Shown here in pieces: positions 5,036 through 38,515 of a stretch of DNA of 64,000 nucleotides. Each line of letters starts with the position of its first letter. The stretch's first letter is position 1. Under the pieces are notes generated by a model, which did no database searches, was not told the DNA's origin, and was given only the letters and a program-made list of their open reading frames with translations. A program made the translations under genes and the position numbers. Source of the stretch: Candidatus Buchananbacteria bacterium (GTDB lineage: Bacteria; Patescibacteriota; Patescibacteriia; Buchananbacterales; UBA6539); NCBI GenBank assembly GCA_041664165.1, contig JBAYLH010000001.1:73469-137468 (forward strand), written 5' to 3'.

Positions 5036-5212
5036 ATGAAAACTTGCGACATTTGCGGCCGACAACCGCTGAAGGCCAACTGGATAAGCCATTCCAACAT
5101 CAAAACGATTCGCCGGCAGAAACTAAATTTGCAGGCCAAAAAAATTGATGGCAAAAAAATGACGATTTGTACCAGTTGCCTAAAAACTCTATCAAAGAAA
5201 AAAACTAAGTAA
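5036..5212 (+). CDS. rpmB: 50S ribosomal protein L28
   Basis: The 58-aa ORF MKTCDICGRQPLKANWISHSNIKTIRRQKLNLQ...CTSCLK matches the L28 pattern (C.ICGK.P..GN.VSHSN.KT.RR..PNLQ). It is not in the ORF track because it is under 60 aa, and a hairpin plus T-run follows it. Confidence 0.7.
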   Translation: MKTCDICGRQPLKANWISHSNIKTIRRQKLNLQAKKIDGKKMTICTSCLKTLSKKKTK

Positions 5213-5254
5213 CAAGTTAGCTTTTAGCTGATAGGAAAGTTACTTAGTTTTTTT
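5205..5254 (+). terminator. Rho-independent terminator after rpmB
   Basis: Stem CTAAGTAAC...GTTACTTAG followed by TTTTTTT. Confidence 0.6.
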
Positions 5255-5280
5255 ATTGAAAAAATTATTGTCACTTGCCT

Positions 5281-5874
5281 CTAAAAATTATTTTTACCAT
5301 TTAAAAAGGGATTTGGCTGGTCAAAAACGATCCGCGGCGTCTGATTATTAATAACATCCAAAGCCACACCATAACGCTTTTGATAAAGCAAATCGGTTGA
5401 ACCAAAAATCGCTTGGGTATAATCAAAACCCAAACTAACGGCCGCGGCTTTGACCAAATTTTCCGCGGCGGCTTCGATTTCGACGAACGGTTCCAAAAAC
5501 GGCCACTCGTCAATCGTAACTTCGGCTTGACCCAAGCGCCAAATTTCCCGCCGATTTTCCTGGTAAGATTTTTGCACGCAGCCGATACTGGCTAAAAATT
5601 TTACCGCTTGGTTATAATCATTAACCGTCAGACAAATTTCTTTTTGATCGGTAATTTTATCGCCCAAAACGGCTTTTAAACTCATGGTAATTTTATCGCC
5701 TTCGTCTCTCACCCGCAGCCAAGCACCGGGAATATCATTTCCCACCGGCAGTAAAAAAACCGTCCGGCGCTGTAAAAATTCTTTTTTCACTAAAACCGCG
5801 CCGGCGTCAAGCAAGCGCTGGGCCATTTCCGCTTTATTAATATTACAAAAAGTGGCTTCGTATTCAATATCCAT
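5281..5874 (-). CDS. CYTH-domain protein (class IV adenylyl cyclase / triphosphatase-like)
   Basis: N-terminal MDIEYEATF resembles the CYTH E.E.K motif, and the ~190-aa size fits. The call is weak. Confidence 0.45.
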   Translation of the reverse strand: MDIEYEATFCNINKAEMAQRLLDAGAVLVKKEFLQRRTVFLLPVGNDIPGAWLRVRDEGDKITMSLKAVLGDKITDQKEICLTVNDYNQAVKFLASIGCVQKSYQENRREIWRLGQAEVTIDEWPFLEPFVEIEAAAENLVKAAAVSLGFDYTQAIFGSTDLLYQKRYGVALDVINNQTPRIVFDQPNPFLNGKNNF

Positions 5875-6100
5875 ATCTGGCTTTATTAATTCCCAATCCC
5901 GATTTTGGATTTTTAGTGTTAATTTCAGCCATAAAACCGAAAAAATCCTTGTGTTTATATTATAACATTATTGAAAGACCGGGCAAAAGCCATCCTGATT
6001 TTTTTGGGCGCGAAATTGACCAGTGGACGAAAATCAAAAAATGAGTATAATTATACCATCAGGGTAAAGGTGCAATTAAAATTAAACTTAGAAATTTTGG

Positions 6101-6177
6101 TCGGGGTATAGCGAAGTTGGCTATCGCGCATGCATGGGGTGCATGAGACCGCGGGTTCGAGTCCCGCTACCCCGACC
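6101..6177 (+). tRNA. tRNA-Pro (anticodon GGG), CCA encoded
   Basis: Hand-folded cloverleaf. The acceptor stem CGGGGTA/TACCCCG and the D arm GCGA-AGTTGGCTA-TCGC are present. The anticodon arm is CATGC-AT GGG GT-GCATG and the T arm is GCGGG-TTCGAGT-CCCGC. The discriminator is A, followed by CCA. Confidence 0.85.
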
Positions 6178-6199
6178 AAAATTTCTAGTCCAAAAAAAT

Positions 6200-6227
6200 G
6201 CTTCAGCTTGACCGAAGCGTTTTTTTT
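6200..6227 (+). terminator. Rho-independent terminator after tRNA-Pro
   Basis: GCTTC-agcttgacc-GAAGC followed by T8. Confidence 0.7.
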
Positions 6228-6290
6228 AAAATTAACAAATTATCTTCATTAACTATAAAAACTCGCTTCCGGACGGATGAAATTTAGCGG

Positions 6291-6332
6291 TAAAAAAAGA
6301 AGCCCGAGAAAATAATCTCTCAGGCTTGATAA
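6291..6332 (-). terminator. Terminator of the aro operon (minus strand)
   Basis: Minus-sense hairpin AGCCTGAGAG...CTCGGGCT followed by a U7 run. Confidence 0.55.
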
Positions 6333-6353
6333 TCGAAACAAAGAACTGGTCAC

Positions 6354-7388
6354 TTAGGCTGCCCGGCCGATAGCATTGGCTACCGCTTTGACCTTGATCA
6401 TCAGCCCGGCAAACTGCTGAGGATTCAACGACTGGGCGCCGTCACAGAGAGCCGAGTCTGGATCGGGATGGACTTCGATTAACAAACCATCCGCACCAGC
6501 AGCCACTGCGGCTAAAGCAATATCTGGCACCAAATCGCGATTGCCGGCGGTGTGCGACGGATCAAATATCACCGGATGATGGGTCAATCCTTTAACAACC
6601 GGAATCGCATCGATGTCCGCGGAATTGCGAGTATGGCCATTATCGAAAGTACGGATGCCGCGAGCGCAAAGAATCACCCGCTGATTACCTTCAGAAACGA
6701 TGTACTCAGCGGCTTGGAGCCACTCATCAATTGTAGCAGCCATCCCCCGCTTAAGAATCACCGGCTTATCAATTCTACCCACCGCCCTCAGCAGCCCGAA
6801 ATTTTGCATATTGCGAGTACCAATCTGCAAAATATCAGCATGCTCGGCAACTAAAGCCACATTTTCCAACGACGTCACCTCCGTCACAATCGGCAAACCG
6901 GTTTCCTGGCGCGCTTGGGCTAAAAACCGTAAGCCCCTTTCTTCTAACCCCTGAAAGAGATGGGGCGAGGTCCGCGGCTTATAGGCGCCACCACGCAAAA
7001 CCACGGCGCCGGCTTGTTTAACGGCGTTCGCTGAAGCCGTAATTTGTTCCAATGACTCAACCGCACAAGGACCGGCCATCACTACCAGCGGCTGATTGCC
7101 ACCAATAGAAATACCATTAATCTGTACAGTGAATTCATCCGGATGAGCTTGGCGAGCAGTTAGCCGAAACGGCGTTTTGGCAAGTTCAACATCAGTCACA
7201 CCAGGCAAGCTCAGAAAAAAATCTTTGAGCCGAAGCTTTTGTTCATGAGAAACTGTACCCAGGCAATTGACAACGCTGACTTCGGTGCCAGCGGTTACGA
7301 TTGCCTTGTTGAACCCGGCGGCCAAAACTTCAGCTTGGACCCGCTTGACATGATCTGACGTCGCGTTTGGACGCATGCAAACAAACAT
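6354..7388 (-). CDS. 3-deoxy-7-phosphoheptulonate (DAHP) synthase, class I-beta type, with N-terminal regulatory domain
   Basis: 344 aa. The GPCAVES motif and the KDO8P/DAHP synthase TIM-barrel core ([22 protein letters not shown]) are present, with an N-terminal extension of about 80 aa. Confidence 0.85.
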
Positions 7389-7391
7389 AAC

Positions 7392-8249
7392 TTACTCCTC
7401 ATCTGTTATGGCGATTGGTTTTGCTTTCGGATAAGAGCCAACCACCATCACCTTATCCGTGAATCGTTCTCTTAGCTGCCCTATTGCCGCCGCGAAAACC
7501 GGATCACTTTCATGACCGTCAACATCAATCCAGAAATTACACTCTCCCAATACCAGCTTAGTAGTGTAAGAGGTAATCCGACTCAGGTTAAGACCCTGAT
7601 AGTAGAATACACCCAATGCATTATACAGTGCCCCGGCTTCGTTTTTAGTGGAGAAAAACAGGGTTGTCTTACTTTGGCCATTGGCCGCTGTCTTGGGTCC
7701 GCCCAAGACAACGAAGCGGGTCACATTATGTTGTGAATCGCCGATGTCGGCAGCTAACACCTGTAAACCATGCTGCTCGGCGGCTTGCTTAGAACCAATC
7801 GCCACAACCGTAGCCACTTCAGACTGAGAAACTAACTCAGCCGCCAGTGCCGTGCTGCTAACCGGTGTCTGTTTCCAATTGCGATCTTGTAAAAATCTTG
7901 AACATTGAGCCAGACCTTGCGAATGCGACAAGACCTTAGTCACCAAAGACAAATCGGTTTGAGACTGGCCTAAAAGCATCTGTCGGATCGGTATCAACAC
8001 TTCTTGAGTAATCCGCAGATTCGGATTGGTCCAGACATGAGCCATCAAAAAATCGACAGTGTCATGGACAACATCGCCCAAGACGTTTTCTATCGGAACA
8101 ATCGCCCGATCAAGCTTGCCTTGAATAAAAGCCTCGAGTAACTGAGTAATTGAAGCAAACCCAATCAGCTCAAATTTGTTGCAGCTCCAAACGATTGCTG
8201 CTTGAGCGGAAAATGTTCCCTCGGGTCCGAGATAACCAAGCCTTAACAT
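7392..8249 (-). CDS. pheA: Prephenate dehydratase with C-terminal ACT domain
   Basis: LGYLGPEGTFS N-terminal PDT signature, and the ESRP motif in the C-terminal ACT region. Confidence 0.85.
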   Translation of the reverse strand: MLRLGYLGPEGTFSAQAAIVWSCNKFELIGFASITQLLEAFIQGKLDRAIVPIENVLGDVVHDTVDFLMAHVWTNPNLRITQEVLIPIRQMLLGQSQTDLSLVTKVLSHSQGLAQCSRFLQDRNWKQTPVSSTALAAELVSQSEVATVVAIGSKQAAEQHGLQVLAADIGDSQHNVTRFVVLGGPKTAANGQSKTTLFFSTKNEAGALYNALGVFYYQGLNLSRITSYTTKLVLGECNFWIDVDGHESDPVFAAAIGQLRERFTDKVMVVGSYPKAKPIAITDEE

Positions 8250-8268
8250 CTTATCTCCTCTTCTCAGC

Positions 8269-8664
8269 TTACGCTGATATTTCGGCCGGTTCTGCTTCCA
8301 ATTTCACTTCCTCAGCAACGAAGCAACCCTCAAGTTGCCCCCGAAGTTGCTCCTGGATCATTTTTCTGTTCTCACTCTCCACCTGCGGGGCAAAAAAGAT
8401 TTCGGCCAGATATTCCCTTCCTGAACCGTCTTTAGCCACTACCTTAAACTTCAAGTAGCCACACTGGACTACTAAAGTTTTTTCATCTGGAAGAATTGCC
8501 ATAAAGCTCCAGCCGACATTCTCATCAGATAAAATCTCAAGCAACTGCCACAAGCAACGAATGGCAGCTTTCCAGTCACAGGTTATCTTCGGCACCTCAT
8601 TCGTGCCGTCGGAATCACTAGCAATTTCTTTGCCATTTTGGCCAATCTGAATAGTAGACAACAT
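8269..8664 (-). CDS. Hypothetical protein, first gene of the GC-rich aro operon
   Basis: 131-aa ORF with a strong AAGGAGG SD 7 nt upstream. No family recognised. Confidence 0.5.
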   Translation of the reverse strand: MLSTIQIGQNGKEIASDSDGTNEVPKITCDWKAAIRCLWQLLEILSDENVGWSFMAILPDEKTLVVQCGYLKFKVVAKDGSGREYLAEIFFAPQVESENRKMIQEQLRGQLEGCFVAEEVKLEAEPAEISA

Positions 8665-9057
8665 CGCCTTTCCTCCTTATCTATTGTGTCAAGGAACCTG
8701 CCTTCTCCATTTGATTTCCATTACTACCCAATTTCTGGCCATAACCGCAAAAACCAAAAATTGAATAATAATCAAAAAACTGACCCCTTGTGGCAGATCA
8801 GTTGCTTGCTTTTTTTGCCTATGATTTGGTCAAACTAAGCCAACTAACCTACCCGGTCAGTAAAGAAATAATAACCAAAAAACCAATTGTTTCCCCCGAG
8901 CGAAGTCGAGGGGTTAGTGATATGTCTTGTCATAGGATAAATTTAGATTATACTATTGGTTTAAGAATGTCAAGAGAGGCGAATTGGATTGCTTCGTCGT
9001 CGGTCACCTCTAGTAACCTCCTCCTCGCAATGACAAAAAATTACGCACGGATAAACC

Positions 9058-9804
9058 CTAAACTTCAATCTTTGAAAATAAATAGCTGCCGATGGCTAAT
9101 AAGACTAAAGTTACTATTGCCAAAACCCCGAGATCAGTCAAAAGCCCGACATGAGCGCCATTAATCAAGGCTCCGCGCAAGCCGTCAACGCCATAAAGCA
9201 AAGGATTCAAGTGCATCGCCGCCACCACCGGTGCCGGAAAACCGTCAATAGGAAATAAGGCGCCAGACAGGAAAAATATCGGCATAATTAAAAAATTAAT
9301 AATGATCGGAAAGGCCTGCATATCTTGCATCCGGGAAGCAATGGCCGTACCAAAAGCGGTAAAAACCAAAGCAATTAAAACCATAAAAACCAAAGCCAAA
9401 GGCAAAAGCAAAATACTAGTTGGCCGAAAACCAACCACTAAAGTCATCAAAAAAACCACAATACCCTGAATGGTGGCTACGGTGGCGCCGCCCAAAGTCC
9501 GGCCGATCATAATGTTAAACCGGGAAGACGGCGCGACCAAAGTTTCTTTCAAAAAACCGAATTGCCGATCCCAGATAATTTCAATACCCGTAAAAATGGC
9601 GGTAAAAATAATCGCCATCGCAATCACGCCCGGCGCCAAAAATTGAATATAGCTGCCGCCACCGGCTTTTTGGTAAATCGGCCCGAAACCAAAACCCAGC
9701 GCGACTAAAAATAATAGCGGCTGGCCGAGCGAACCGATCATTCGAGCTTTAGACCTTGAGTACCTTTTAAGTTGTCTTAGCCACAAAATATAAATAACTT
9801 TCAT
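9058..9804 (-). CDS. ABC-2 family transporter permease
   Basis: 248 aa with 6 predicted TM helices and an ABC-2 type profile. It is immediately downstream of the ABC ATPase. Confidence 0.8.
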   Translation of the reverse strand: MKVIYILWLRQLKRYSRSKARMIGSLGQPLLFLVALGFGFGPIYQKAGGGSYIQFLAPGVIAMAIIFTAIFTGIEIIWDRQFGFLKETLVAPSSRFNIMIGRTLGGATVATIQGIVVFLMTLVVGFRPTSILLLPLALVFMVLIALVFTAFGTAIASRMQDMQAFPIIINFLIMPIFFLSGALFPIDGFPAPVVAAMHLNPLLYGVDGLRGALINGAHVGLLTDLGVLAIVTLVLLAIGSYLFSKIEV

Positions 9805-9830
9805 AGGGGTTAGGGACTAGGGATTAGGGG

Positions 9831-10625
9831 TTAGTGGCGCCAAGCCCTGCGGTGACCGCGCATCCTTTCCGCCGCGCCGGCTTCTTCGTCGCGGATTACT
9901 TTGCCGGTTAGATTCAAAAAGGCATCTTCCAAAGTTTGAGTGCTAGTTTTTTGCTTTAATTCAGCCGGACTGCCGGCGGCAATGATTTTACCATGGTCAA
10001 TAATGGCGACCTGGCCGGCAGCGCGATCCGCTTCTTCCATGTAATGAGTCGTAAAAAACACCGTCATGCCTTCGTCTTTATTTAATTTTTTAATGTAATT
10101 CCAAATATGATTTCGCGTCTGCGGATCAAGTCCCAAAGTCGGCTCGTCTAAAAATAAAATTTTAGGGTGATGAATTAGGCCGCGGGCGATTTCTAACCTT
10201 CTTTTCATCCCGCCGGAAAACTTTTTAACTAGTTCATTTTTACGATCCCAAAGTTCGACGAATTTCAGCATCTCTTCAATCCGCTCGCGCCTGACTTTTT
10301 TTGGCACGCCATAAAGTACGCCGTGAAATTCCAAATTTTCCCAGGCCGTTAATTCATCGTCCAAACTTTGATCCTGAAACACAATGCCAAAAGAATGCCG
10401 AACCGCATCCTGAGCCGTTACCGGATCATAACCGTTAACTGAAATTTTGCCATCAGTCGGCGAAAGCAAAGTCGTCAGCATCTTGATCGTCGTGGTTTTG
10501 CCCGCGCCGTTTGGCCCCAAAAAAGCAAAAATACCCCCTTTTTCCACATTGAAGGAGATATTGTCCACGGCCGTAAAATTACCGAATTTTTTGGTTAAAT
10601 TTGCAACATCAATCATAGTTTGCAT
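9831..10625 (-). CDS. ABC transporter ATP-binding protein (DrrA-like)
   Basis: Walker A GPNGAGKTT, signature FSGGMKRRLEIARGL, and Walker B LFLDEPTLGLD. Confidence 0.9.
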   Translation of the reverse strand: MQTMIDVANLTKKFGNFTAVDNISFNVEKGGIFAFLGPNGAGKTTTIKMLTTLLSPTDGKISVNGYDPVTAQDAVRHSFGIVFQDQSLDDELTAWENLEFHGVLYGVPKKVRRERIEEMLKFVELWDRKNELVKKFSGGMKRRLEIARGLIHHPKILFLDEPTLGLDPQTRNHIWNYIKKLNKDEGMTVFFTTHYMEEADRAAGQVAIIDHGKIIAAGSPAELKQKTSTQTLEDAFLNLTGKVIRDEEAGAAERMRGHRRAWRH

Positions 10626-10701
10626 TTCCTAACTTACAAAAATTATACCATTATCACCCTTGAGTGTAAAACTAAAATTATGCTTAATTGAGAAACATAA
10701 T

Positions 10702-10731
10702 AAAAAAAAGACTGGGTGTAAATCCAGTCTT
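10702..10731 (-). terminator. Rho-independent terminator (minus strand)
   Basis: Minus-sense AGACTGG-atttacac-CCAGTCT followed by U8. Confidence 0.7.
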
Positions 10732-10744
10732 CACAAAGGTCAAT

Positions 10745-11104
10745 CTAGGCCGAAAGAACTCCCTCATCTAAGAAGGCGGCCATAGTTCTAAGACCATCCA
10801 ACTTCTTTTCGAGAATCAATTTTGCATCTTCTGTTTGTTGGTTTAGAAACTGGCGAAATTCACCGGCAAAACTACCCCCCAAGGCAAACCTCACGCTGTA
10901 CTGGCCGCCAGTTGAGCTTGATCCCGAAAAATGGAGAACAAAACTATCATTCCCATTAGTCCCAAATGTTGCCTCATGCCAAACATCTTGAGGAAAGGGT
11001 ATCTGCCACAAGAACTTAACTACCTCCCGGCACTCTGGCGGCAAAGACCCAATGTTATCCTCGGTTACTTCCCCTATCTTTGGAAAAAAAAGTTTGATCC
11101 TCAT
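10745..11104 (-). CDS. Hypothetical small protein (paralog of 12768..13142)
   Basis: 119 aa with a strong SD AAGGAGGGAG. It shares G..F.V..S.SSS, SVRFALGG/SVSFVGGG and the C-terminal LILEKKLDG/LRLEKILG segments with the 124-aa ORF. Confidence 0.55.
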   Translation of the reverse strand: MRIKLFFPKIGEVTEDNIGSLPPECREVVKFLWQIPFPQDVWHEATFGTNGNDSFVLHFSGSSSTGGQYSVRFALGGSFAGEFRQFLNQQTEDAKLILEKKLDGLRTMAAFLDEGVLSA

Positions 11105-11159
11105 TGCACTCCCTCCTTTTACCCATTCGGGTCTAAGTTGTCAAAAAAACTTCGCCGCT

Positions 11160-11262
11160 AATTAAAACAACCTTCCGGGTGGAAGGCCTTGTTTGACTTG
11201 TCAGCTTGCTTTTTGGCTGACTAATTAACTATGGCTAAACCTTCCACCCTGAGGCTGGAGCA
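11160..11262 (-). promoter_or_regulatory. Attenuator-like leader A: terminator hairpin CCUUCC-ACCC-GGAAGG plus U-run, with an upstream complementary GGGUGGAAGG
   Basis: In minus sense the order is CCAGCCUCAGGGUGGAAGG, about 50 nt, GGCCUUCCACCCGGAAGGUUGUUUU, then SD and ATG. The same architecture recurs at 13212..13300. Confidence 0.55.
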
Positions 11263-11339
11263 ACAACAAACCTAACAATAAATTGGTTTGGGTAAAGGTT
11301 AATTTCATAGTGATTTCAGCTTATTGTATCCCGAAAAAA

Positions 11340-11470
11340 TTGTCAACCCGGTAGTAGTCCCTCACTTTCAGATAGAGAAAATGCTTGAACATCTATTATT
11401 ACAAATAAAATAAAAATAATTATTTTTATTTTATTTGATGAAGTGAGGGATCACTACCGGGTCAAATTGC
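11340..11470. repeat. Large imperfect inverted repeat (~24-bp arms, ~70-bp AT-rich spacer containing a perfect 34-bp palindrome)
   Basis: Arm CAACCCGGTAGTAGTCCCTCACTT (11344-11367) pairs with AAGTGAGGGATCACTACCGGGTCA (11441-11464). The centre AAATAAAATAAAAATAATTATTTTTATTTTATTT is palindromic. Confidence 0.7.
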
Positions 11471-11521
11471 CGGTTTGGACTAAAAGAAAAAACCCGCAGT
11501 CAAGACGACTACGGGTCGAAA

Positions 11522-11794
11522 TCAGAGCTTAACGCCGCAATTGGCCAAATCCTCCAACGTCCTGGCGTCAGGCTCAACGCCATGGTTTTCCTTAAGCGCC
11601 CGGATAACAGCCGGAACGCAACGATCGCGCAGATCAGCCAGTCTGGCTTCTCTTCGGCCGTTTTTTTCGCTGCCGGATTGAGATGTTTTTCTCAATTTGC
11701 CTATTAGCCCAAACATCTCCGTGATATGCCATCTTAGCCGCCATTTCAGGCATAAAACATTCGGCAAGACTTTTTCACTACCAGTGCCTGTCAT
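11522..11794 (-). CDS. Hypothetical protein (90 aa, basic)
   Basis: GGAGG SD upstream, in the GC-rich island. No family recognised. Confidence 0.4.
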   Translation of the reverse strand: MTGTGSEKVLPNVLCLKWRLRWHITEMFGLIGKLRKTSQSGSEKNGRREARLADLRDRCVPAVIRALKENHGVEPDARTLEDLANCGVKL

Positions 11795-11810
11795 GAAAGT
11801 ATCCTCCGTT

Positions 11811-12458
11811 TCAAGCTACAGTCGTAGCGCCAATGGCAATCGTTGCAAAATCGTTAAGATCGGGCGTAGCCCAGTCAACCCAGCTTTTACAGCAACTGAC
11901 CGGAAAATCGACAATGATAATCCCGGCCTCAGGATCAACGCGCAAGGCAATCCGATGGTCAGTGGTAATACCACGAAACTGGCAATACCACTCGGGCCAA
12001 TCTTGCAGTTTGACGACATCTCTGCACCAGAAATAACCCCAGCCAAAGTCAGGATACTTACCCTCCGGGTCTTGGCGCTGATAGGCAAAGATCGCAGCAA
12101 TGGCTTCAACGGCCGAAATCGGCTGAAAATTCTCCGGCAGCTGCTCGGCCTGCTGGTCAAAGGTCTGACCGTGAACTTTGCCGCTATCGGCAACGGCCAA
12201 AAAATGACACTGACTAACTGGCGACTGGCGCAAAAATGCCATCTGCCTGTAGCGGCCAAAAAGCGGATGATCCCGAAACTGGCACTCGTTTAGCCACCGT
12301 GGTCGCGAGCCAAAACCCCGCGTCCAACCGGCAATGGAATCCGGTTCACCAACGACTGGCTGAGCCTCAATTGTGACAAAATCTTCACTTGCCAGCCTGC
12401 CAGCGGCCAGCGGCGTATGACCAGTGATCCCCTTGGCTGATTCCAACAATGCTCCCAT
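11811..12458 (-). CDS. Hypothetical protein (215 aa, Trp/Cys-rich)
   Basis: GAAGGAGGG SD upstream and GC-rich codon usage that differs from the flanking genes. No family recognised. Confidence 0.5.
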   Translation of the reverse strand: MGALLESAKGITGHTPLAAGRLASEDFVTIEAQPVVGEPDSIAGWTRGFGSRPRWLNECQFRDHPLFGRYRQMAFLRQSPVSQCHFLAVADSGKVHGQTFDQQAEQLPENFQPISAVEAIAAIFAYQRQDPEGKYPDFGWGYFWCRDVVKLQDWPEWYCQFRGITTDHRIALRVDPEAGIIIVDFPVSCCKSWVDWATPDLNDFATIAIGATTVA

Positions 12459-12704
12459 CGCTTTTGACCCTCCTTCTAATTACGGCCAATCTCCAGACTT
12501 AATAATGACAATGAACCAAAAAACAAAAACTAGTCATTTTAGACTAGGTAATTGCTGCTAATTGCTATTGTTTAAGCCAAACTACCCAGTCTTTTGACCA
12601 GCTACCAATACGGTTCTGCCGTCTAAAATTTGGCAAGCTATAGATTTCATAAATCCAGTTTAACAGACTTAAAAAATATGTCAAACCGACCACTAAAAAC
12701 CTTA

Positions 12705-12745
12705 AAAAAAAGAGGAGTCAACTAACAAAAGCAGTTGACCCCAAC
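12705..12745 (-). terminator. Terminator after the 124-aa paralog
   Basis: Minus-sense GGGGTCAACT...AGTTGACTCC followed by UCUUUUUUUU. Confidence 0.55.
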
Positions 12746-12767
12746 TAATAACTTGATTAGTCCGGTC

Positions 12768-13142
12768 TTAGCCGAGAATCTTTTCAAGCCTCAACTCCGG
12801 TTCGCCATTTTGACGAAGGCCATTGTAACGAATACAAAGAGCAATAAGGATTGCTACTGGTTCGCTACGATCGTTACCAATAGCTTGACCACCGCCAACA
12901 AATGATACCGAGGCTCTTTGGTCTTTGAAGGTATGTTCTTCCACCTCCGGCAAATTTGAACCAGCCGGCAAAATCTGCACTAAGGCCAGTCGTACTGCTT
13001 TAGCCAAACTTAAGTCTCTACTAATGAATTCTTGTTTTGAGCTTGAACATGAAACAGCCACTTCAAATTGTTGCCCCTCCTGACCGCCGGTTACGCGCAT
13101 TTGTTTCCAATTCACATAAATACGGCCATTACCTTGCCTCAT
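12768..13142 (-). CDS. Hypothetical small protein (paralog of 10745..11104); ATG at 13142 preferred over the GTG at 13178 used by the track
   Basis: AGGAGGAG SD precedes the ATG (MRQGNGRIY...), and the GTG extension would contain the SD. See the paralog for the shared motifs. Confidence 0.5.
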   Translation of the reverse strand: MRQGNGRIYVNWKQMRVTGGQEGQQFEVAVSCSSSKQEFISRDLSLAKAVRLALVQILPAGSNLPEVEEHTFKDQRASVSFVGGGQAIGNDRSEPVAILIALCIRYNGLRQNGEPELRLEKILG

Positions 13143-13211
13143 ACTATCACTCCTCCTAGACCAGTTCCCTGACGCCACTCTCAGCTAAGCCTTGTTCTAC
13201 TAAGCAAGACA

Positions 13212-13300
13212 ATTAAAAAAACCTTCCGGGTGGAAGGTCTCTTGTATCGTCTAACTTGGTAGTTTACATACTGCTAAGACTTCCACCCAAAGGCTGGCTA
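13212..13300 (-). promoter_or_regulatory. Attenuator-like leader B (same family as leader A)
   Basis: In minus sense the order is AGCCAGCCUUUGGGUGGAAG, about 50 nt, then CCUUCCACCCGGAAGG followed by U7. Confidence 0.6.
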
Positions 13301-13604
13301 ATGATAATGCCGATAATAATATTGCGCTGGATTGAAGTCATATTTTTAATATTAGTATCTTAAACCATCGGCAAAAATCAGTCAAGACCTAATTATAACT
13401 AATTAAACTACCGATAGTTGCCGCCTGCGCCTGAAAAGCATAAGCCGCCCAGCCGAGAAAAAATAATAAAATCATGATGGAAAGAATGGAAAAACCCAAA
13501 AACAAACCGGCTTCACGCAGACTTTGGACTCGTGATTTCGGCTTAGAGCGATAATTTTTGCTTAAATATGGCATTTTTTATCTCATTAAAAAACCTAACT
13601 AAAC

Positions 13605-13736
13605 TTATTCAATATGATCGTGAATAAACTTAATTAGGTCTTTTTCGAATACGCGATAAGTTTTATGGCCGATTTTTGCCGCCCGCAATTGCTTAGAAGA
13701 AACCCAGCGGTAAACCGTTTTTAGGCTTACTTTCAT
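13605..13736 (-). CDS. Small helix-turn-helix DNA-binding protein (excisionase/MerR-like HTH); an alternative GTG start at 13781 gives 58 aa
   Basis: The translation ...LTLEEVAGIMKVSLKTVYRWVSSKQLRAAKIGHKTYRVFEKDLIKFI has the typical excisionase-family HTH pattern. It is under 60 aa, so it is absent from the track. Confidence 0.45.
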   Translation of the reverse strand: MKVSLKTVYRWVSSKQLRAAKIGHKTYRVFEKDLIKFIHDHIE

Positions 13737-13810
13737 TATCCCGGCAACCTCTTCCAAGGTGAGAATTCGGTAGCTAGACACGTTTTTTGCTTAGTGGCTC
13801 CATGAGTTTA

Positions 13811-13870
13811 ATTGTAAAAGATTTTGTCCATCATTGTCAAGCATAAGTTAATCATTGTCCACCATTGTCC
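13811..13870 (-). promoter_or_regulatory. Putative promoter (minus sense TTGACA-N18-TACAAT) overlapped by three GACAATG direct repeats, upstream of the HTH gene
   Basis: Plus strand has attgta at 13811-16 and tgtcaa at 13835-40. The repeats are catcATTGTCaag, aatcATTGTCcac and ccATTGTCcag. Confidence 0.4.
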
Positions 13871-13969
13871 AGTATGCCGGAATTTAAACTATCATAAAAA
13901 ATGACCTATTAAAGCCATTTTTTATCAATTTATCTAATTTTTTTGGTAACCTATTCAACCACTAGCCAC

Positions 13970-14569
13970 CTAGCCAAACATGACATCCTCGTCGGTCCTT
14001 TTGTAGTTATCCACAATATCAACATTTTTAAACCAAAGCTGTTCTTCATATTTAGCTTCTTCGGGATTGCCGGAAGCATGCATAATATTATGAACGGCTC
14101 GCTTTTTAACATTAGCCAAAGCCGGCGAATCAATCGAAAAATCTCCTCTGATTGTTCCCGGCGTGGCAAAAACCGGCAGAGTATTTCCAGCCAAAGTCCG
14201 GACATTATCAATGGCGTGAACGCCTTCGAGCAAAATCGCCACCACCGGTCCGGAAGTGATAAATTCAACGTTCCATTTATTGACCATTTTGCCGATATCT
14301 TCCGCCGTTAAATCGCCGAATTCTTCTTTCGGATCCCGGCCGTATTTTTCGTAAGTGTCTAAAGTTTTTTGGCCGATTCCTTTCATTAATTCCGTCCGGC
14401 TTTCGGGATAATGTTTGCCGGCTAAAACTTCGTCAACCCAGACTAATTTTAAAGCTTTTATTTTCAAGCCCATTTTCTCAAAGCGGGAAATAACTTCGCC
14501 AATCAAACCGCGCTTAACGCCGTCAGGTTTAATTAAGACAATTGTTCTTTCTAGTTGTAGATCTGACAT
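13970..14569 (-). CDS. ndk: Nucleoside diphosphate kinase with C-terminal extension
   Basis: IVLIKPDGVKRGLIGEVISRFE and the NIMHAS active-site His region are present. The 199 aa is longer than a canonical NDK. Confidence 0.88.
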   Translation of the reverse strand: MSDLQLERTIVLIKPDGVKRGLIGEVISRFEKMGLKIKALKLVWVDEVLAGKHYPESRTELMKGIGQKTLDTYEKYGRDPKEEFGDLTAEDIGKMVNKWNVEFITSGPVVAILLEGVHAIDNVRTLAGNTLPVFATPGTIRGDFSIDSPALANVKKRAVHNIMHASGNPEEAKYEEQLWFKNVDIVDNYKRTDEDVMFG

Positions 14570-23187: not shown

Positions 23188-24513
23188 TTACAAATCTAAA
23201 TATCTTTTTAGTTCTCTAGGCGTTACCTCCGTTTTTTGCTCTTCAATTTCAATTTGTTTAGCGCTGATAAATCTATCTAGGGTATGTTGAGTAATAGCGC
23301 CCTTAACCACTTCATCTTTATTTAATTCACTAATCGCTTCTGGCAGTGAACCCGGCAAACTGGATATTTTTAGCTCTTGCTTTCTGTTATCATCTAAATG
23401 ATAAATATCTTCCTCGATGGCCGGCGATAACGGCATATCTTTTTCAATGGCATCGAGTCCCGCCGCCAAGATCGCGGCAAAGGCCAAATAAGGATTGCAC
23501 GACGGATCTGGGGATCGGAGTTCGACTCTGGTTGATTGCTCACGGCCCGGCGTAAACCGCGGAATTCGGATCAGTGCTGACCGATTCATTTGAGCCCAGC
23601 AGATATTGACCGGGGCTTCATAGCCAGGTATCAGTCTCTTAAAAGAATTAGTAGTCGGATTGGTCAAGGCAGTAAAACCTCGGCTATGATGCAGTAAACC
23701 AGCAATAAACTGATAAGCGATTTTTGACAGCTTATAGCCATTGTTGTCTTCATAAAACAAATTATTGCCTTTTAAATCAAACAGGCTTAAATGCACGTGC
23801 ATACCTGATCCGTTTATGCCACCAAATGGTTTTGGCATAAATGTCGCATTGATACCATAACTTTGGGCAATTGCTTTGATGGTAGTTTTTAGAGTTATGA
23901 TATTATCTGCCGTATTTAAGGCATCGGCATAACGAAAATCAATTTCATGCTGCCCTGCTGCAACTTCATGATGACCGGCCTCAATTTTTATATTTAATTC
24001 AGATGAAGCTTTGATTACATCCTCCCTGATTTTTGAGGCGACATCGAAAGGAGAAAAATCAAAATAGCCGCCATAATCATGGGGAACAGGTGCCATACTG
24101 CTATCTTTTTGCAAAAGAAAAAATTCCAGTTCTGCCCCAACGTTCAAAATCAATCCTTTATCTTCGGCTTTTTTCATCATCTGTTTTAAAATGTAACGCG
24201 GATCGCCGATGAATGGTTTTAAGTCTGGACCATAAACATCACAAATTATTCTAGCAGCTTTATTTTCTTTTAAACTCCAAGGCAAAGTGCAGTAAGTTTT
24301 TACATCTGGCATCAGTAGCTGATCACTTTCGGCAATTCTGGCAAACCCCTCAATCGAGGAACCGTCAAACCAGATGCCTTTTTCCAAAGCGCCGGACAAT
24401 TGTTCGGTTGGGATTACAACATCTTTGGGTATACCCAAGATGTCGGTAAACTGCAGATGAATGTACTTAACGTTATCTTTATTTACCTTTTCTAAAAGTG
24501 TTTCTTTGCTCAT
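23188..24513 (-). CDS. glnA: Glutamine synthetase type I (ATG at 24513 preferred over the track's upstream TTG at 24543)
   Basis: GS catalytic motifs (GINGSGMHVHLSLFD, NPYLAFAAILAAGLDA). The real start is judged to be MSKETLLEKV. Confidence 0.9.
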   Translation of the reverse strand: MSKETLLEKVNKDNVKYIHLQFTDILGIPKDVVIPTEQLSGALEKGIWFDGSSIEGFARIAESDQLLMPDVKTYCTLPWSLKENKAARIICDVYGPDLKPFIGDPRYILKQMMKKAEDKGLILNVGAELEFFLLQKDSSMAPVPHDYGGYFDFSPFDVASKIREDVIKASSELNIKIEAGHHEVAAGQHEIDFRYADALNTADNIITLKTTIKAIAQSYGINATFMPKPFGGINGSGMHVHLSLFDLKGNNLFYEDNNGYKLSKIAYQFIAGLLHHSRGFTALTNPTTNSFKRLIPGYEAPVNICWAQMNRSALIRIPRFTPGREQSTRVELRSPDPSCNPYLAFAAILAAGLDAIEKDMPLSPAIEEDIYHLDDNRKQELKISSLPGSLPEAISELNKDEVVKGAITQHTLDRFISAKQIEIEEQKTEVTPRELKRYLDL

Positions 24514-24544
24514 AGTTAATTTTTTTGTTAAGTTTAAAATCAAA

Positions 24545-24607
24545 CAAAAAAGGCGTCAAAAATTATTTTGGACGTCTTTGTCGAGTCTTTTTAGTACGCC
24601 TTTGTAC
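24545..24607 (-). promoter_or_regulatory. Candidate ANTAR-target dual hairpin plus terminator in the glnA leader
   Basis: Minus sense has GUAC-AAAGGC-GUAC and GAC-AAAGAC-GUC (hexaloops with A1 and G4) 11 nt apart. A GACGCC U7 tract follows, with GGCGU available upstream for a terminator stem. Confidence 0.45.
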
Positions 24608-24652
24608 TAATCATAGTGTAGCACAAACCAAAAAAAAGTCAACTGTGGATAT

Positions 24653-25360
24653 TTAAGCCATAACATCCTGGGCTAAAATAATGGCTTCGGCTACTTCTTT
24701 GAGCGATTTTCGTTTATCCATGCTCTTTTTAACCAAAAGCCGATGAGCCTCTTGCTCGGTTAAGCCGCCGGCTTTAATCAAAATTGCTTTAGCCTTATTG
24801 ATAATTTTTTGGGTTTCCAACGCTTCTTTCAAAACATTAGTTTCGGAAATCAGTCGAGACACTTCCAAAATTCCGCCAATTTGTTTGGCAATCGTTTCTA
24901 AAAAATTAATTTCTTTTCTTGGATATCTTTTTGATTTTTTATGCTGAACATTAATTACGCCGATGACATGATTACGAAAAATTATCGGCACCGATAAAAA
25001 CCCTTCAAATTTGTCTTCCGGCAAACTGGAAAAAAGCTTAAAGCGCTTATCTTCATAAGCTTTTTTGGAAATGGCGACTGACTTTTTCGTTTCCGCTACC
25101 CAGCCGGTAATGCCTTCGCCGACTTTCATTTTAACTCGGGAGAGATTAGAGTGATGGGGATTTTGGGACGCTTTCAAAATTACCTCTTCGCCGGAAATCA
25201 AATAAATGAAGCAGGAATCAGCTTTGGTAATTTTGCCGATAATTTTAGCGATGTTATCCAAAATTTCCCGCAAATCAAAGTTGTTGCTGGCGGTTTCAAT
25301 AATTTCCTGCAAAATCAATAAATTATTTTTGACGTCTAAATTTTGATTTTTGGTGGCCAT
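24653..25360 (-). CDS. GAF-ANTAR RNA-binding antitermination regulator
   Basis: An N-terminal GAF-like domain, and a C-terminal ANTAR helix region LTEQEAHRLLVKKSMDKRKSLKEVAEAII. Confidence 0.75.
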   Translation of the reverse strand: MATKNQNLDVKNNLLILQEIIETASNNFDLREILDNIAKIIGKITKADSCFIYLISGEEVILKASQNPHHSNLSRVKMKVGEGITGWVAETKKSVAISKKAYEDKRFKLFSSLPEDKFEGFLSVPIIFRNHVIGVINVQHKKSKRYPRKEINFLETIAKQIGGILEVSRLISETNVLKEALETQKIINKAKAILIKAGGLTEQEAHRLLVKKSMDKRKSLKEVAEAIILAQDVMA

Positions 25361-33707: not shown

Positions 33708-35570
33708 CTATTGAACCTGGGCCCAAAAAATTACTTCCCCGGTTTTGATGCCAAAACCCAGGTAATTGCCCGGCACTGCCAAAACGACATCCTGGTTTTT
33801 ACTTTCCTGGCTGGCCAAGTTTAAAAAGTAGCCGGACCATAGACTGCTGCCAATTGAAACATTTCGAGTAAAAACCGGGTCGCCGGTAACTGACGAAGTA
33901 ATTCTTAAGTTAACCGTACCCAAATTATTTAAAGTGATGGTTTGGCTGGCACTTTTTCCCGGCTGGACTTTGCCGAAATCAAGCTGGCTGGGAGTAACTT
34001 CAAAAATGATCGCTTCCCCGCCGATCCGGCCGCGGCCGCCCTGGTCAACTTCGACTTGCAAACCGACATTTTGCGAAACGCCGCTGCCAACCGAAATTAT
34101 TGCCTGATTGCTCCGGATGTAATTTTCCTTTTCCGCCGCTAAAGTGTAATAACCCGCCGGCAGCGCCATCACCACCTGGCCGGAAACGTCAGTTTGGTAT
34201 TCTTTATCGCCGCCGAAAACTATCGCGCCGGAAATCGGCTGCCAGTCCGACTGGCTGAAATATTTTACCGTTACGGTAATGCTTTCTCCCGGGTCAGTCT
34301 GATTTTTGCTGACAGTCAGGCTCAAGGGCTTATCGTAATCCGGATAAGCCGGAGCGTTGGTGTCGACATCATAATAAATTAAAACTTCGTCATTAGCCTG
34401 CAGATTATATTGCTCCAAACCGGAATCCGAAGGCTTATTATTTATCAAATACATCCAATAAGCCGGCGAACTGCCCGCCACGCCATTGATTGAATCAAGA
34501 AAAAAAGTGCCATAAGTCCGGTTGCCGGCAAAATTGTAATGACAAGAGACTGAACCGGCGACTAATAAATCATAAGCCGTCAAACCATTTAAAAACTTAT
34601 CGCAAATTGCCCCAGTCTGGCCTTCGATCCGAAAATGATATTGACCGGTTGGCTCTTGGCTGTCGCCGCTAGCACCAGCGTTAAAATGAGCTAAAGGCAA
34701 AGTCCGGCCCGATAAGGCCAAAACCGCATCCTGCGTCGCCAGCAAATTAGCGCCGGCATTAGTTTCGGTTCGGCCAAAAGAACCGTCGGCATTTTGCCGG
34801 GCGGAAATATAGCTAATCGGATTATTGTTTCCTTTGACCCATTGCTCCGGATTTTGACCGGCTTTGCGGATCGCCCAAACCACCCAGCTGGTTGAATTGG
34901 CATCGGATGAATTGTCAGCCGCCCAGCCAAAACCGCCGTCAGCATTTTGGGCTGAAGTTAAATAGCTTAAAGCATTAGTAACAGTCGAATTGCTGGCATT
35001 AACGCCGGCTTCCAGCAAAGCGATAGTAACGATAGCGGTGCTGTTGGTATCGCTGTCAATGCCGATGTTATAGCCCCAGCCGCCGTCAGGATTTTGTTTT
35101 GACAGCAAATAATTTTTGGCGCCGACAATTTCCGTACCCGTTAAACTCTGGCCGGCGGAAGATAAAGCTAAAATGCCAAAACTATCGTCCATCAGCATTT
35201 GACTGTCGCCAATTTGGCTATTTTGGTAAAAGCCTTTCAAGGCGGCAACGTAATCAATATTGCCGAAATCAGCCGGATTTTGACCCAGCGCCGAAACGGC
35301 CAAAATGGTTTTGGCGTAGTCTAACGGCGTATTGTCAGTTGATTTGAGGTAATCCGAAGCGATGTCGGAAGCGCCGGCCGCCACCAAAGCCATGGTCACC
35401 CAAGGCGCCTGGCTTGATTGTTTTAAATAAGTGATTGAATCTTGGCTGATGTCAGCCGAGACAATGGCCGGCTGAAAAACCGATAAAACCACGGCCGCAG
35501 CCAATAAAATAGTAATGATTTTGTTTTTCATATAAACAAAAAATCTCCCGTTTCGAGAGAGTTTGGTCAT
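33708..35570 (-). CDS. Secreted alpha/alpha-toroid (prenyltransferase/terpene-cyclase-like repeat) protein with C-terminal Ig-like domains
   Basis: Repeated segments of the type QNPDGGWGY, QNADGGFGW and QNADGSFG are typical of alpha/alpha-toroid repeats. An N-terminal signal peptide is present. Confidence 0.6.
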   Translation of the reverse strand: MTKLSRNGRFFVYMKNKIITILLAAAVVLSVFQPAIVSADISQDSITYLKQSSQAPWVTMALVAAGASDIASDYLKSTDNTPLDYAKTILAVSALGQNPADFGNIDYVAALKGFYQNSQIGDSQMLMDDSFGILALSSAGQSLTGTEIVGAKNYLLSKQNPDGGWGYNIGIDSDTNSTAIVTIALLEAGVNASNSTVTNALSYLTSAQNADGGFGWAADNSSDANSTSWVVWAIRKAGQNPEQWVKGNNNPISYISARQNADGSFGRTETNAGANLLATQDAVLALSGRTLPLAHFNAGASGDSQEPTGQYHFRIEGQTGAICDKFLNGLTAYDLLVAGSVSCHYNFAGNRTYGTFFLDSINGVAGSSPAYWMYLINNKPSDSGLEQYNLQANDEVLIYYDVDTNAPAYPDYDKPLSLTVSKNQTDPGESITVTVKYFSQSDWQPISGAIVFGGDKEYQTDVSGQVVMALPAGYYTLAAEKENYIRSNQAIISVGSGVSQNVGLQVEVDQGGRGRIGGEAIIFEVTPSQLDFGKVQPGKSASQTITLNNLGTVNLRITSSVTGDPVFTRNVSIGSSLWSGYFLNLASQESKNQDVVLAVPGNYLGFGIKTGEVIFWAQVQ

Positions 35571-35914: not shown

Positions 35915-36436
35915 TTAGTCCTCTATCCCTTTCCTGGCTAATAAACCGGCTTGATACGGGTGTTTAATTTCTTTCATTTCCGTCACGTAGTCGGCCAGCT
36001 TGATTAATTCTTTTGGTGCCCGGCGGCCGGTCAAAACTAATTCAACGCCAGCCGGCTTACTTTTCATCAGTTGAACTATTTCTTTAACCGAAATTAATTT
36101 AAAAAATAACGCCAAAAAAATTTCATCCAAAATCACCAAGTCAAACTTACCGGATTTGAATATCTTTTTTGCCCAATTCAGCGCTCTTTTGGCTAAAATT
36201 TTATCTTGAGCCGTGCCTTTTTGGTAAATATAAGTCTTTTGGCCAAAGCGCTTAATTGTTACTTCCGGTAATCGTTTTAAGCTATCCAGCTCACTATACT
36301 GCTGGGCTTTGAGAAACTGAACCAGATAAACCTGATAACCGGCGCCAATCGCCCGCAAAGCCAAGCCTAAAGCGGCCGTGGTTTTGCCCTTGCCGTCGCC
36401 GGTATAAATATGGATTTTGCCTAATTGAGATTTCAT
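35915..36436 (-). CDS. cobO: Cob(I)alamin adenosyltransferase (CobA/CobO/BtuR family)
   Basis: IHIYTGDGKGKTTAALGLALRAIGAGYQVYLVQFLK P-loop region. The 173-aa size fits. Confidence 0.85.
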   Translation of the reverse strand: MKSQLGKIHIYTGDGKGKTTAALGLALRAIGAGYQVYLVQFLKAQQYSELDSLKRLPEVTIKRFGQKTYIYQKGTAQDKILAKRALNWAKKIFKSGKFDLVILDEIFLALFFKLISVKEIVQLMKSKPAGVELVLTGRRAPKELIKLADYVTEMKEIKHPYQAGLLARKGIED

Positions 36437-38439: not shown

Positions 38440-38515
38440 GGGACGGCCACAACCGGCAGGGGGGGGACGAGTTTATTCTTCGTCCTCTCCCCTGCCAACT
38501 GAAAGGAGTTCTGCG

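Follow-up and report, generated by a model that had tools for sequence, protein, structure and literature searches.

Patescibacteria (CPR) seldom carry genes for amino-acid biosynthesis, and to our knowledge the capacity for it is generally absent from them. What, then, are two enzymes of the phenylalanine route, those of its entry and its exit, doing side by side in the chromosome of one of their number? The locus that raises this question lies in a Buchananbacteria-related Patescibacteria metagenome-assembled genome (MAG), within a 64-kb stretch of DNA, analysed in full and here called the window. An earlier note, which had correctly placed the genes in a reduced (CPR) genome, read them as a GC-rich fragment of a pathway acquired horizontally at a tRNA hotspot. 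The answer that we judge probable is a different one: a canonical enzyme pair held in one unit, constituting an old feature of its clade that has been exchanged within that clade, and accompanied by a small accessory gene, orf131.

The probable transcription unit and its enzymes

The three minus-strand ORFs were confirmed with exact coordinates (344, 285 and 131 aa), and the NCBI annotation already names them as DAHP synthase (DAHPS), prephenate dehydratase (PDT) and a hypothetical protein (MFA6215044-46). In the direction of reading, orf131 is followed by PDT and then by a type I-beta DAHPS:

8778..8803, minus strand: terminator-like hairpin that closes the upstream ABC-transporter genes and forms the 5' limit of the unit
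8269..8664, minus strand: orf131, a small fast-evolving protein and the first gene of the unit, its ATG preceded at 7 nt by the ribosome-binding site AGGAGG
7392..8249, minus strand: prephenate dehydratase of the pheA type, lacking a chorismate-mutase domain and ending in an ACT-like domain
6354..7388, minus strand: type I-beta DAHP synthase of the Thermotoga type, with an N-terminal ferredoxin-like regulatory domain assigned by sequence
6300..6327, minus strand: terminator-like hairpin with a 12-pair stem and a T run, lying 27 nt beyond the DAHPS stop codon

Intergenic gaps within the unit measure 19 nt and 3 nt, a Shine-Dalgarno motif lies 6-7 nt ahead of every start, and the hairpin beyond DAHPS probably marks the 3' end. 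Positions 6300-8800 of the minus strand would form a self-contained transcription unit, from orf131 through the pheA-type PDT to the aroF-type I-beta DAHPS, whose three genes are probably co-transcribed. A consensus promoter was not found between hairpin and orf131 (minus strand, 8665-8777). Rfam (gathering threshold and E <= 1) returned the tRNA alone, with no T-box or other riboswitch leader ahead of orf131.

The identity of the DAHP synthase is borne out by PF00793 (E 3.6e-78; 262.6 bits against a cut-off of 25.5), TIGR01361 (370.5 against 267.75) and NF006421 (439.5 against 335). Its likeness to the DAHPS of T. maritima (1rzm, 1vr6, 3pg9) runs through residues 1-341: PDB entry 1rzm aligns end to end, N-terminal domain included (E 2e-87), and the window protein, like that of T. 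maritima, would place the regulatory domain first and the TIM barrel after it. The metal ligands Cys102, His272, Glu298 and Asp309 (T. maritima numbering) are the same in both and invariant in all eight CPR copies; a KPRTSP motif is likewise identical to that of T. maritima, and the Lys-Pro-Arg phosphate/PEP motif (T. maritima K131-P132-R133) is identical in the window DAHPS and seven CPR relatives. The two proteins differ in that residues 1-75, which align to the N-terminal domain of 1rzm, score 26.5 bits with PF18152 (FXD), just under the cut-off of 27, and in that one host is a free-living thermophile whereas the other is a CPR bacterium.

For the PDT, PF00800 (E 2.7e-51; 174.4 bits against 25.2) and NF008865 (230.2 bits against 219) again uphold the first identification, and the protein aligns to PDB entries 3mwb, 4lub and 2qmx. 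The TRF motif bearing the catalytic threonine reads N-V-T-R-F in the window copy and N-x-TRF in all eight CPR copies. Its ACT domain scores 18.9 bits with Pfam, below the cut-off of 27, and retains the GAL motif; the ESRP motif is replaced by TSYT in the window, L005 and L093 and by TSFT in L083, the same position holding ASRP, TSRT or DSRT in other PDTs of the clade. The window protein thus lacks the GAL(V)/ESRP combination of phenylalanine-binding motifs expected of such an ACT domain, its regulatory site being altered and its catalytic domain unaffected. Synonymous sites are saturated in most CPR pairs, and the dN/dS values given here, ~0.08 for DAHPS and ~0.11 for PDT, are those of the window against L005. 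Taken at the level of sequence, intact catalytic residues and purifying selection are shown for both enzymes, whose activities are most likely the canonical ones: DAHPS is predicted to form DAHP by condensing PEP with erythrose-4-phosphate, at the regulated entry to the shikimate pathway, and PDT to make phenylpyruvate from prephenate, at the committed exit to phenylalanine.

Might the pair nevertheless do something else, acting on other substrates in, for example, a specialised-metabolite route, with orf131 as a novel component such as a replacement for chorismate mutase? The TSYT change, fixed in one subclade, could be read in this way, as could the strong translational signal of orf131, its tight coupling to PDT and the occurrence of a distant homologue at the same position in L083. 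We nonetheless hold such a function to be highly unlikely, since both enzymes exceed equivalog/subfamily cut-offs and have canonical active sites, and the BagF/FevY-type exception model scores just 356.7, far under its cut-off of 700. The behaviour of orf131 also speaks against it. The 131-aa protein matched no family in Pfam or NCBIfam (E <= 0.01) or in PHROGs, and a search of 5.8 billion proteins retrieved itself alone. Its one true homologue, P0242 (E 1.7e-13), is the neighbour of a type I restriction-modification system, and its profile matched (E 5e-6) an ORF of 137 aa that immediately precedes PDT in L083, so that the family occupies this position in two of the eight lineages carrying the pair and is absent from it in L005, L008, L085, L088, L093 and L095. 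A sequence search of the PDB (E <= 10) gave just bL9 and peptide deformylase, with no chorismate mutase. The single-sequence AlphaFold model (pLDDT 57.5; beta-alpha-beta4-alpha topology) is too uncertain to exclude a fold, and Foldseek with this low-confidence model found nothing in the PDB at E <= 0.001 and no chorismate mutase in the top 50. The proposal of a chorismate-mutase substitute thus has no support from family or sequence matches, from a fold match to this uncertain model, or from conservation with the pair; orf131 would instead be a real, rapidly evolving accessory gene in a variable slot, and no pathway enzyme. A separate candidate, that orf131 and a 119-aa ORF (10745-11104) are paralogues, was rejected (BLASTP E 22, and the orf131-family HMM missed the 119-aa ORF).

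Descent, exchange and the neighbouring tRNA

The argument for horizontal acquisition rested in part on the tRNA that adjoins the unit, which was confirmed and is the sole tRNA of the window:

6102..6178, plus strand: tRNA-Pro(GGG), whose place beside DAHPS is conserved in the clade and whose orientation is inverted relative to the relatives
6089..6187, no strand: perfect 20-nt inverted repeat (arms 6089-6108 and 6168-6187) that lengthens the acceptor stem by 13 nt per side

The repeat may have been the substrate for inversion of the tRNA. In L005, L008, L083, L085 and L093 tRNA-Pro(GGG) follows DAHPS, and in several relatives PDT, DAHPS and this tRNA share a common chromosomal site, NDK ... 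M50-rpsL-rpsG-fusA. In L005, L008 and L085/L094 the pair is flanked by NDK/ABC genes on one side and M50-rpsL-rpsG-fusA on the other, and in the distant lineage L095 it adjoins NDK, five lineages having it in the NDK/str-operon neighbourhood. Every related lineage recovered has the pair, with no presence/absence polymorphism seen; it is the allele that varies. In neighbour-joining trees the 12 CPR PDTs form a single clade, and of the 12 CPR DAHPSs 11 group likewise, the exception being L085, the divergent Rifle copy, whose best BLAST matches are nonetheless CPR copies. L005 and L008 have EF-G proteins 94% identical, whereas their PDTs are 46% and their DAHPSs 65% identical with saturated synonymous divergence, a disparity which shows, so far as sequence comparison can, that the cassette has been replaced between close relatives by exchange within the clade. 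The pair would be a long-standing possession of a small CPR clade, inherited vertically at a fixed chromosomal site, with versions of the cassette probably swapped among its members through homologous replacement. Relatives also have cimA-like and leuA genes just upstream of the pair, and these the window lineage has lost; a search of the window for LeuA/CimA pseudogene remnants (tblastn, proteins of seven relatives) gave a best E of 0.16.

A recent arrival from outside the CPR, as a genomic island associated with tRNA-Pro, was the first reading of the locus. It could appeal to the 3' end of the tRNA abutting the 3' end of DAHPS in the window genome, to a raw GC of DAHPS that is 4th highest among 50 genes, to nearest non-CPR DAHPSs in Bacillota and Chloroflexota (55-57% identity) and to the demonstrable exchangeability of the cassette. 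It is already largely refuted, and we would now give it very little chance. The pair is found at one and the same site across several CPR lineages, one of them with an NDK just 52% identical; no integrase or recombinase was found among called genes 10 kb either side, and no att-like direct repeat of the tRNA or copy of its 3' end in 5200-14000, where the only repeat is the inverted one around the tRNA itself. The shared site and the lack of integrase and att repeat therefore argue against recent insertion. In the relatives, moreover, the tRNA is on the DAHPS strand and downstream, the wrong geometry for integration at a tRNA 3' end, and PDT identity is 46-78% inside the clade but no higher than 43% to non-CPR proteins.

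Composition points the same way. The cassette had been said to differ from its neighbours in GC-rich codon usage, a claim that does not hold: GC3 is 0.51 for DAHPS, 0.476 for PDT and 0.485 for orf131 (z-scores of 0.8, 0.3 and 0.45), each less than 1 SD from the window mean of 0.453 (SD 0.07). GC in 1-kb bins is 0.49 at 6-8 kb against 0.40 at 4-6 kb, within a span of 0.34-0.56 for the window, and the GC excess of DAHPS is an effect of amino-acid composition, because it sits in codon position 1 (GC 0.63). By synonymous-codon chi-square PDT ranks 8th, DAHPS 18th and orf131 22nd among 49 genes. The composition of the cassette is native. The true codon-usage outliers of the window are two ORFs at 37567-39484. 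Of the claim of horizontal acquisition at a tRNA hotspot, recent foreign insertion falls to the same-site synteny, the native composition and the missing integrase and att repeat; what stands is a weaker form, the swapping of the cassette among lineages of the clade seen in L005 and L008.

The rest of the pathway

As the earlier note had observed, no other shikimate-pathway gene is visible in the window, no such Pfam family occurring among its called genes. No further shikimate, chorismate-mutase or aminotransferase gene was found in these 64 kb, drawn from a contig of at least 257 kb, or in the ~20-kb neighbourhoods of eight related lineages. Other genes of the same genome, or else a partner organism, would presumably provide the intervening steps (aroB to aroC, chorismate mutase, aminotransferase).

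How much such a local absence can tell is best judged against bacteria in which the same two genes also adjoin. DAHPS and PDT are adjacent in ~20 clostridial loci (e.g. L015, L016, L021-L046; Clostridia, Oscillospiraceae and Lachnospiraceae MAGs), where a DAHPS with the FL domain likewise adjoins a PDT-ACT protein. The clostridial bicistron differs in order, DAHPS preceding PDT there and PDT preceding DAHPS in the CPR clade, in having neither the small upstream ORF nor a linked tRNA-Pro, and in its proteins, which are just 45-50% (DAHPS) and 35-39% (PDT) identical to the CPR pair. In L021 the two genes stand alone, with no other aro gene within 5 kb. A possible second small-genome case, L097 (PDT match of 39% identity, 924-kb contig), was set aside as unrelated, its gene content looking archaeal. 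The nearest non-CPR relatives of the DAHPS, which have the same domains, sit in other company: trpEGDCFBA-aroF-tyrA-aroA in Desulfofundulus and DAHPS-aroA in L171. Such canonical aromatic supra-operons place DAHPS amid EPSP synthase, prephenate dehydrogenase and trp genes, whereas in the CPR clade it is accompanied by PDT alone.

It is against this background that a further reading has to be weighed, in which the steps from DAHP to prephenate are truly missing and the two enzymes are orphans, either serving a pathway in which a host or community also takes part or surviving as remnants nearing loss. CPR genomes are typically auxotrophic, no sampled neighbourhood holds a further pathway gene, and the feedback-regulated cimA-like, leuA, pheA and aroF genes cluster without leuBCD, ilv or aroB-C nearby, a grouping of gatekeepers unlike the canonical operons just described; cimA and leuA have also been lost in mosaic fashion across lineages, and their loss from the window lineage, together with the very divergent copies in relatives, could point to a whole set of genes in decay or put to some other use. 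Decay is opposed by the purifying selection and intact active sites of both enzymes in all eight lineages, and sharing by the need to pass DAHP or prephenate between cells, for which no transporter has been demonstrated here. The stand-alone pair also occurs in Clostridia, where full pathways are to be expected, and local absence of other pathway genes is therefore uninformative. We regard the orphan condition as possible but doubtful. Improbable, to our minds, is its more specific form, in which the clade keeps and swaps a tRNA-Pro(GGG)-linked cassette of gatekeepers only, as part of a shared pathway or as amino-acid-sensing modules, the intervening steps being missing. The members of such a cassette are citramalate-synthase-like protein, isopropylmalate synthase, prephenate dehydratase and DAHP synthase; in its shared-pathway version DAHP, prephenate or keto-acid intermediates would be handed off to host or community.

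Nested insect endosymbionts such as Tremblaya and Moranella have split, patchwork amino-acid pathways, and the present locus would resemble them only if the intervening steps were truly absent, a subset of enzymes being kept in a reduced genome while a partner supplies the rest. Unlike them, CPR bacteria are episymbionts and not intracellular.

Meaning for the clade

On the reading that we favour, of a canonical and long-retained pair exchanged within its clade, there is nothing unusual about the enzymes, whose existing annotation is correct; it is the host that is rare. Full-text searches of the literature on aromatic or isopropylmalate-synthase genes in Buchananbacteria, Patescibacteria or CPR found nothing relevant. 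The locus offers a test case, a CPR clade in which the enzymes at the entry and exit of the phenylalanine route are intact and have been exchanged repeatedly, as have, in relatives, those that open the leucine and isoleucine routes. It can show how far anabolic autonomy extends in some CPR lineages and in what way metabolic genes pass between members of the radiation; should the rest of the pathway prove absent, it would indicate a hand-off of metabolites between episymbiont and host.

Anatomy of the unit and integrity of its enzymes

Three consecutive minus-strand ORFs of 131, 285 and 344 aa occupy 6354-8664, exactly as the earlier note had placed them, and Pfam and NCBIfam profile scores bear out its naming of the two longer products. 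The longer of these, at 344 aa, is a type I-beta DAHP synthase (DAHPS; PF00793, E 3.6e-78; NF006421, 439.5 bits, cut-off 335; TIGR01361, 370.5, cut-off 267.75) and the 285-aa protein a prephenate dehydratase (PDT; PF00800, E 2.7e-51; NF008865, 230.2 bits, cut-off 219). By exact sequence matching the window falls on a 257,585-bp contig of a 'Patescibacteria group bacterium' MAG, and the NCBI annotation already names both enzymes and lists the 131-aa ORF, orf131, as hypothetical protein WC768_00585. The tRNA-Pro that the same note had seen beside them is also present.

Features of the unit and its borders
6102-6178 (+): tRNA-Pro(GGG), the sole tRNA in the window
6327-6300 (-): 12-bp hairpin and T run, 3' of the DAHPS stop
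6354-7388 (-): DAHPS
7392-8249 (-): PDT
8269-8664 (-): orf131, first gene of the unit
8803-8778 (-): hairpin ending the upstream ABC-transporter genes

Because the gaps are short (19 nt between orf131 and PDT, 3 nt between PDT and DAHPS), an AGGAGG or GAGGAG motif lies 6-7 nt 5' of every start and hairpins stand on both sides, we infer that 8800-6300 is a single, co-transcribed unit; Rfam searches found no T-box or riboswitch for it. DAHPS aligns end-to-end with the Thermotoga maritima enzyme 1rzm (E 2e-87), N-terminal ferredoxin-like regulatory domain included, and neither its four metal ligands nor Lys-Pro-Arg vary across the window protein and seven relatives from the candidate phyla radiation (CPR). 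The catalytic N-x-TRF motif of PDT is kept in all eight copies from the same set; in the window subtype the ESRP motif of its ACT domain has become TSYT, so feedback control may be altered. Where synonymous sites are unsaturated, dN/dS is ~0.08 for DAHPS and ~0.11 for PDT, and both genes are under purifying selection.

Composition, synteny and residence of the pair

Raw GC is 0.49 at 6-8 kb against 0.40 at 4-6 kb, within window bins spanning 0.34-0.56, and the GC excess of DAHPS sits at codon position 1. The GC-rich codon usage, unlike that of the neighbours, that had been attributed to these genes does not hold: GC3 (DAHPS 0.51, PDT 0.476, orf131 0.485) lies near the window mean of 0.453 (SD 0.07), and by synonymous-codon chi-square PDT, DAHPS and orf131 rank 8th, 18th and 22nd among 49 genes. 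Composition, as GC bins, GC3 and codon chi-square, thus gives no sign of recent foreign origin for the three.

PDT-DAHPS stands between NDK/ABC-transporter genes and M50-rpsL-rpsG-fusA in the window, in L005 (a 922-kb CPR contig), in the CPR locus L008 and in the Rifle Buchananbacteria genome (L085/L094); in another CPR locus, L095, the NDK is just 52% identical, yet the pair again lies 3' of it. No integrase was found among the genes around the unit, and no repeat of the tRNA-Pro end near it. DAHPS has a small group of close relatives at 63-79% identity, followed by Bacillota and Chloroflexota at 55-57%. For PDT the relatives share 46-78%, two carrying the label Candidatus Buchananbacteria, before identity falls to 43% or less. 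Neighbour-joining trees place all 12 CPR PDT sequences in a single clade, and likewise 11 of the 12 for DAHPS; the divergent L085 copy falls outside, though BLAST matches it best to CPR copies. The shared site, the missing integrase and tRNA-end repeat and the CPR clades together argue that the pair is an old resident of this clade, with no recent insertion. Of the horizontal acquisition proposed earlier, recent foreign insertion is accordingly not supported, the native composition also speaking against it, and what stands is cassette exchange within the clade, as between L005 and L008.

The tRNA-Pro(GGG) lies 3' of DAHPS on the same strand in five CPR loci (L005, L008, L083, L085, L093) and is inverted in the window, where it sits inside a perfect 20-nt inverted repeat (6089-6187) that lengthens its acceptor stem by 13 nt each side. 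Its flanks in L005 (about 11586-11683), L008, L083 and L093 are other sequences, by eye again mutually complementary (covarying); relative to all relatives, the window tRNA looks as if flipped between repeat arms.

Elsewhere in the window, intergenic 11325-11484 holds a long hairpin (22-nt arms, 11346-11367 and 11441-11462) enclosing a 36-nt AT palindrome (11402-11437), with sub-threshold Rfam matches to unrelated hairpin RNAs. A 30-nt direct repeat, 93% identical (11160-11189 and 13211-13240), contains a CCTTCC-GGGT-GGAAGG hairpin and is probably a shared terminator-like element. Two adjoining ORFs at 37567-39484 (+), opposite in strand to nearly all else and with no Pfam match, are the strongest codon-usage outliers (GC 0.55-0.57, GC3 0.59-0.67) and make a stronger case for foreign DNA than the DAHPS unit does. 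A giant ORF (47155-63996, minus strand) runs past the window end; its full 6028-aa protein has weak T4SS-pilin, Laminin_G_3 and Flg_new_2 matches.

Cassette exchange and the leading ORF

L005 and L008 are close in EF-G (94.2%; dS 0.69), S12 (98.6%) and M50 (92.1%), whereas their DAHPS and PDT are just 64.8% and 45.6% identical, with synonymous sites saturated. Their DNA flanks align at 86-87%; between L005 8556-12324 and L008 9016-11784 alignment is limited to part of DAHPS, at 72%. The nearest PDT to that of L005 is the window copy (77%), despite L005-window EF-G at 80%, while L008 DAHPS is nearest the window (73.5%) and L008 PDT nearest L085 (56.5%). The PDT and DAHPS gene trees are thus at odds with genome relationships and with each other, an incongruence which, at the level of sequence comparison, shows replacement of cassette versions by recombination among clade members.

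orf131 has no family match in Pfam, NCBIfam or PHROGs and only a self-match in a 5.8-billion-protein search. Exhaustive searching added a single genuine homologue, the 284-aa P0242 (E 1.7e-13, with 38% identity across residues 5-108); it adjoins a type I restriction-modification system, and no aro genes lie close by. A profile built from both sequences matches a 137-aa ORF directly 5' of PDT in L083 (E 5e-6), and no further member was found in a set of 26,126 ORFs drawn from 172 loci; the slot holds an unrelated 151-aa ORF in L005 and is empty in L008. orf131 is probably a real gene, a fast-evolving one only loosely tied to the cassette. Nothing supports its suggested role as a chorismate-mutase substitute: no such enzyme came up among PDB sequences at E <= 10, and Foldseek of a low-confidence single-sequence AlphaFold model (pLDDT 57.5; beta-alpha-beta4-alpha topology) gave nothing in the PDB at E <= 0.001, its 50 best matches including no chorismate mutase.

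Pathway context and role of the pair

Full-text searches found no paper describing this locus or its two enzymes in Patescibacteria. LeuA-superfamily genes lie shortly 5' of PDT in several CPR relatives, one in L005 and two each in L083/L093, L085/L094 and L088.

LeuA-superfamily genes 5' of PDT
L005: 1737-3341
L083: 3645-5264 and 6874-8550
L085: 3455-5155 and 7264-8931
L088: 3083-4639 and 6369-8045

One is citramalate-synthase-like (TIGR00977, 334-415 bits, under the cut-off of 450); the other, in most such relatives, is a 2-isopropylmalate synthase whose subfamily differs between lineages, and positional counterparts share ~30% identity. Both are missing from the window and L008 loci, and tblastn with the relatives' proteins detected no remnants in the window. 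No further aro, leu or ilv genes were seen in the sampled neighbourhoods (the 64-kb window; 20-kb pieces of relatives). Apart from the pair, only one gene of amino-acid-related anabolism was seen in the window, a glutamine synthetase with a GAF-ANTAR regulator after it (23188-25360, minus strand). At 33708-35570 and 35915-36436 (minus strand), a 620-aa protein combines DUF4430 with prenyltransferase/squalene-hopene-cyclase-like repeats; close to it are more proteins with DUF4430 or DUF6580 and an adenosyltransferase of the CobA/BtuR type, possibly a cobalamin-related cluster.

The nearest non-CPR DAHPS genes, unlike the CPR pair, belong to canonical aromatic operons that also carry EPSP synthase, prephenate dehydrogenase and trp genes. 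About 20 clostridial loci have DAHPS directly adjoining PDT, as in CPR but in the opposite order, and in one, L021, the pair stands alone; that other pathway genes are missing locally therefore says little about the whole genome. A YbaK-type tRNA_edit gene lies shortly 3' of DAHPS both in a non-CPR DAHPS-aroA locus (L171 8001-10886, after aroA) and in L005 (10001-12343, after tRNA-Pro), a placement that could be chance or a remnant of common neighbourhood ancestry.

The main rival to a canonical function is that DAHPS and PDT are true orphans that serve a shared pathway or are heading for loss; such a reading agrees with the 'gatekeeper-only' clustering and with the mosaic pattern in which cimA and leuA were lost, and is weakened by the clear purifying selection on both genes. 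The best explanation of the sequence evidence remains that the two would act in their canonical roles, with about seven steps between them, DAHPS as the regulated entry enzyme and PDT as the committed exit enzyme to phenylalanine. On this reading they are kept in a small CPR clade as a bicistron-like cassette, inherited vertically at a fixed site and now and then swapped between lineages.
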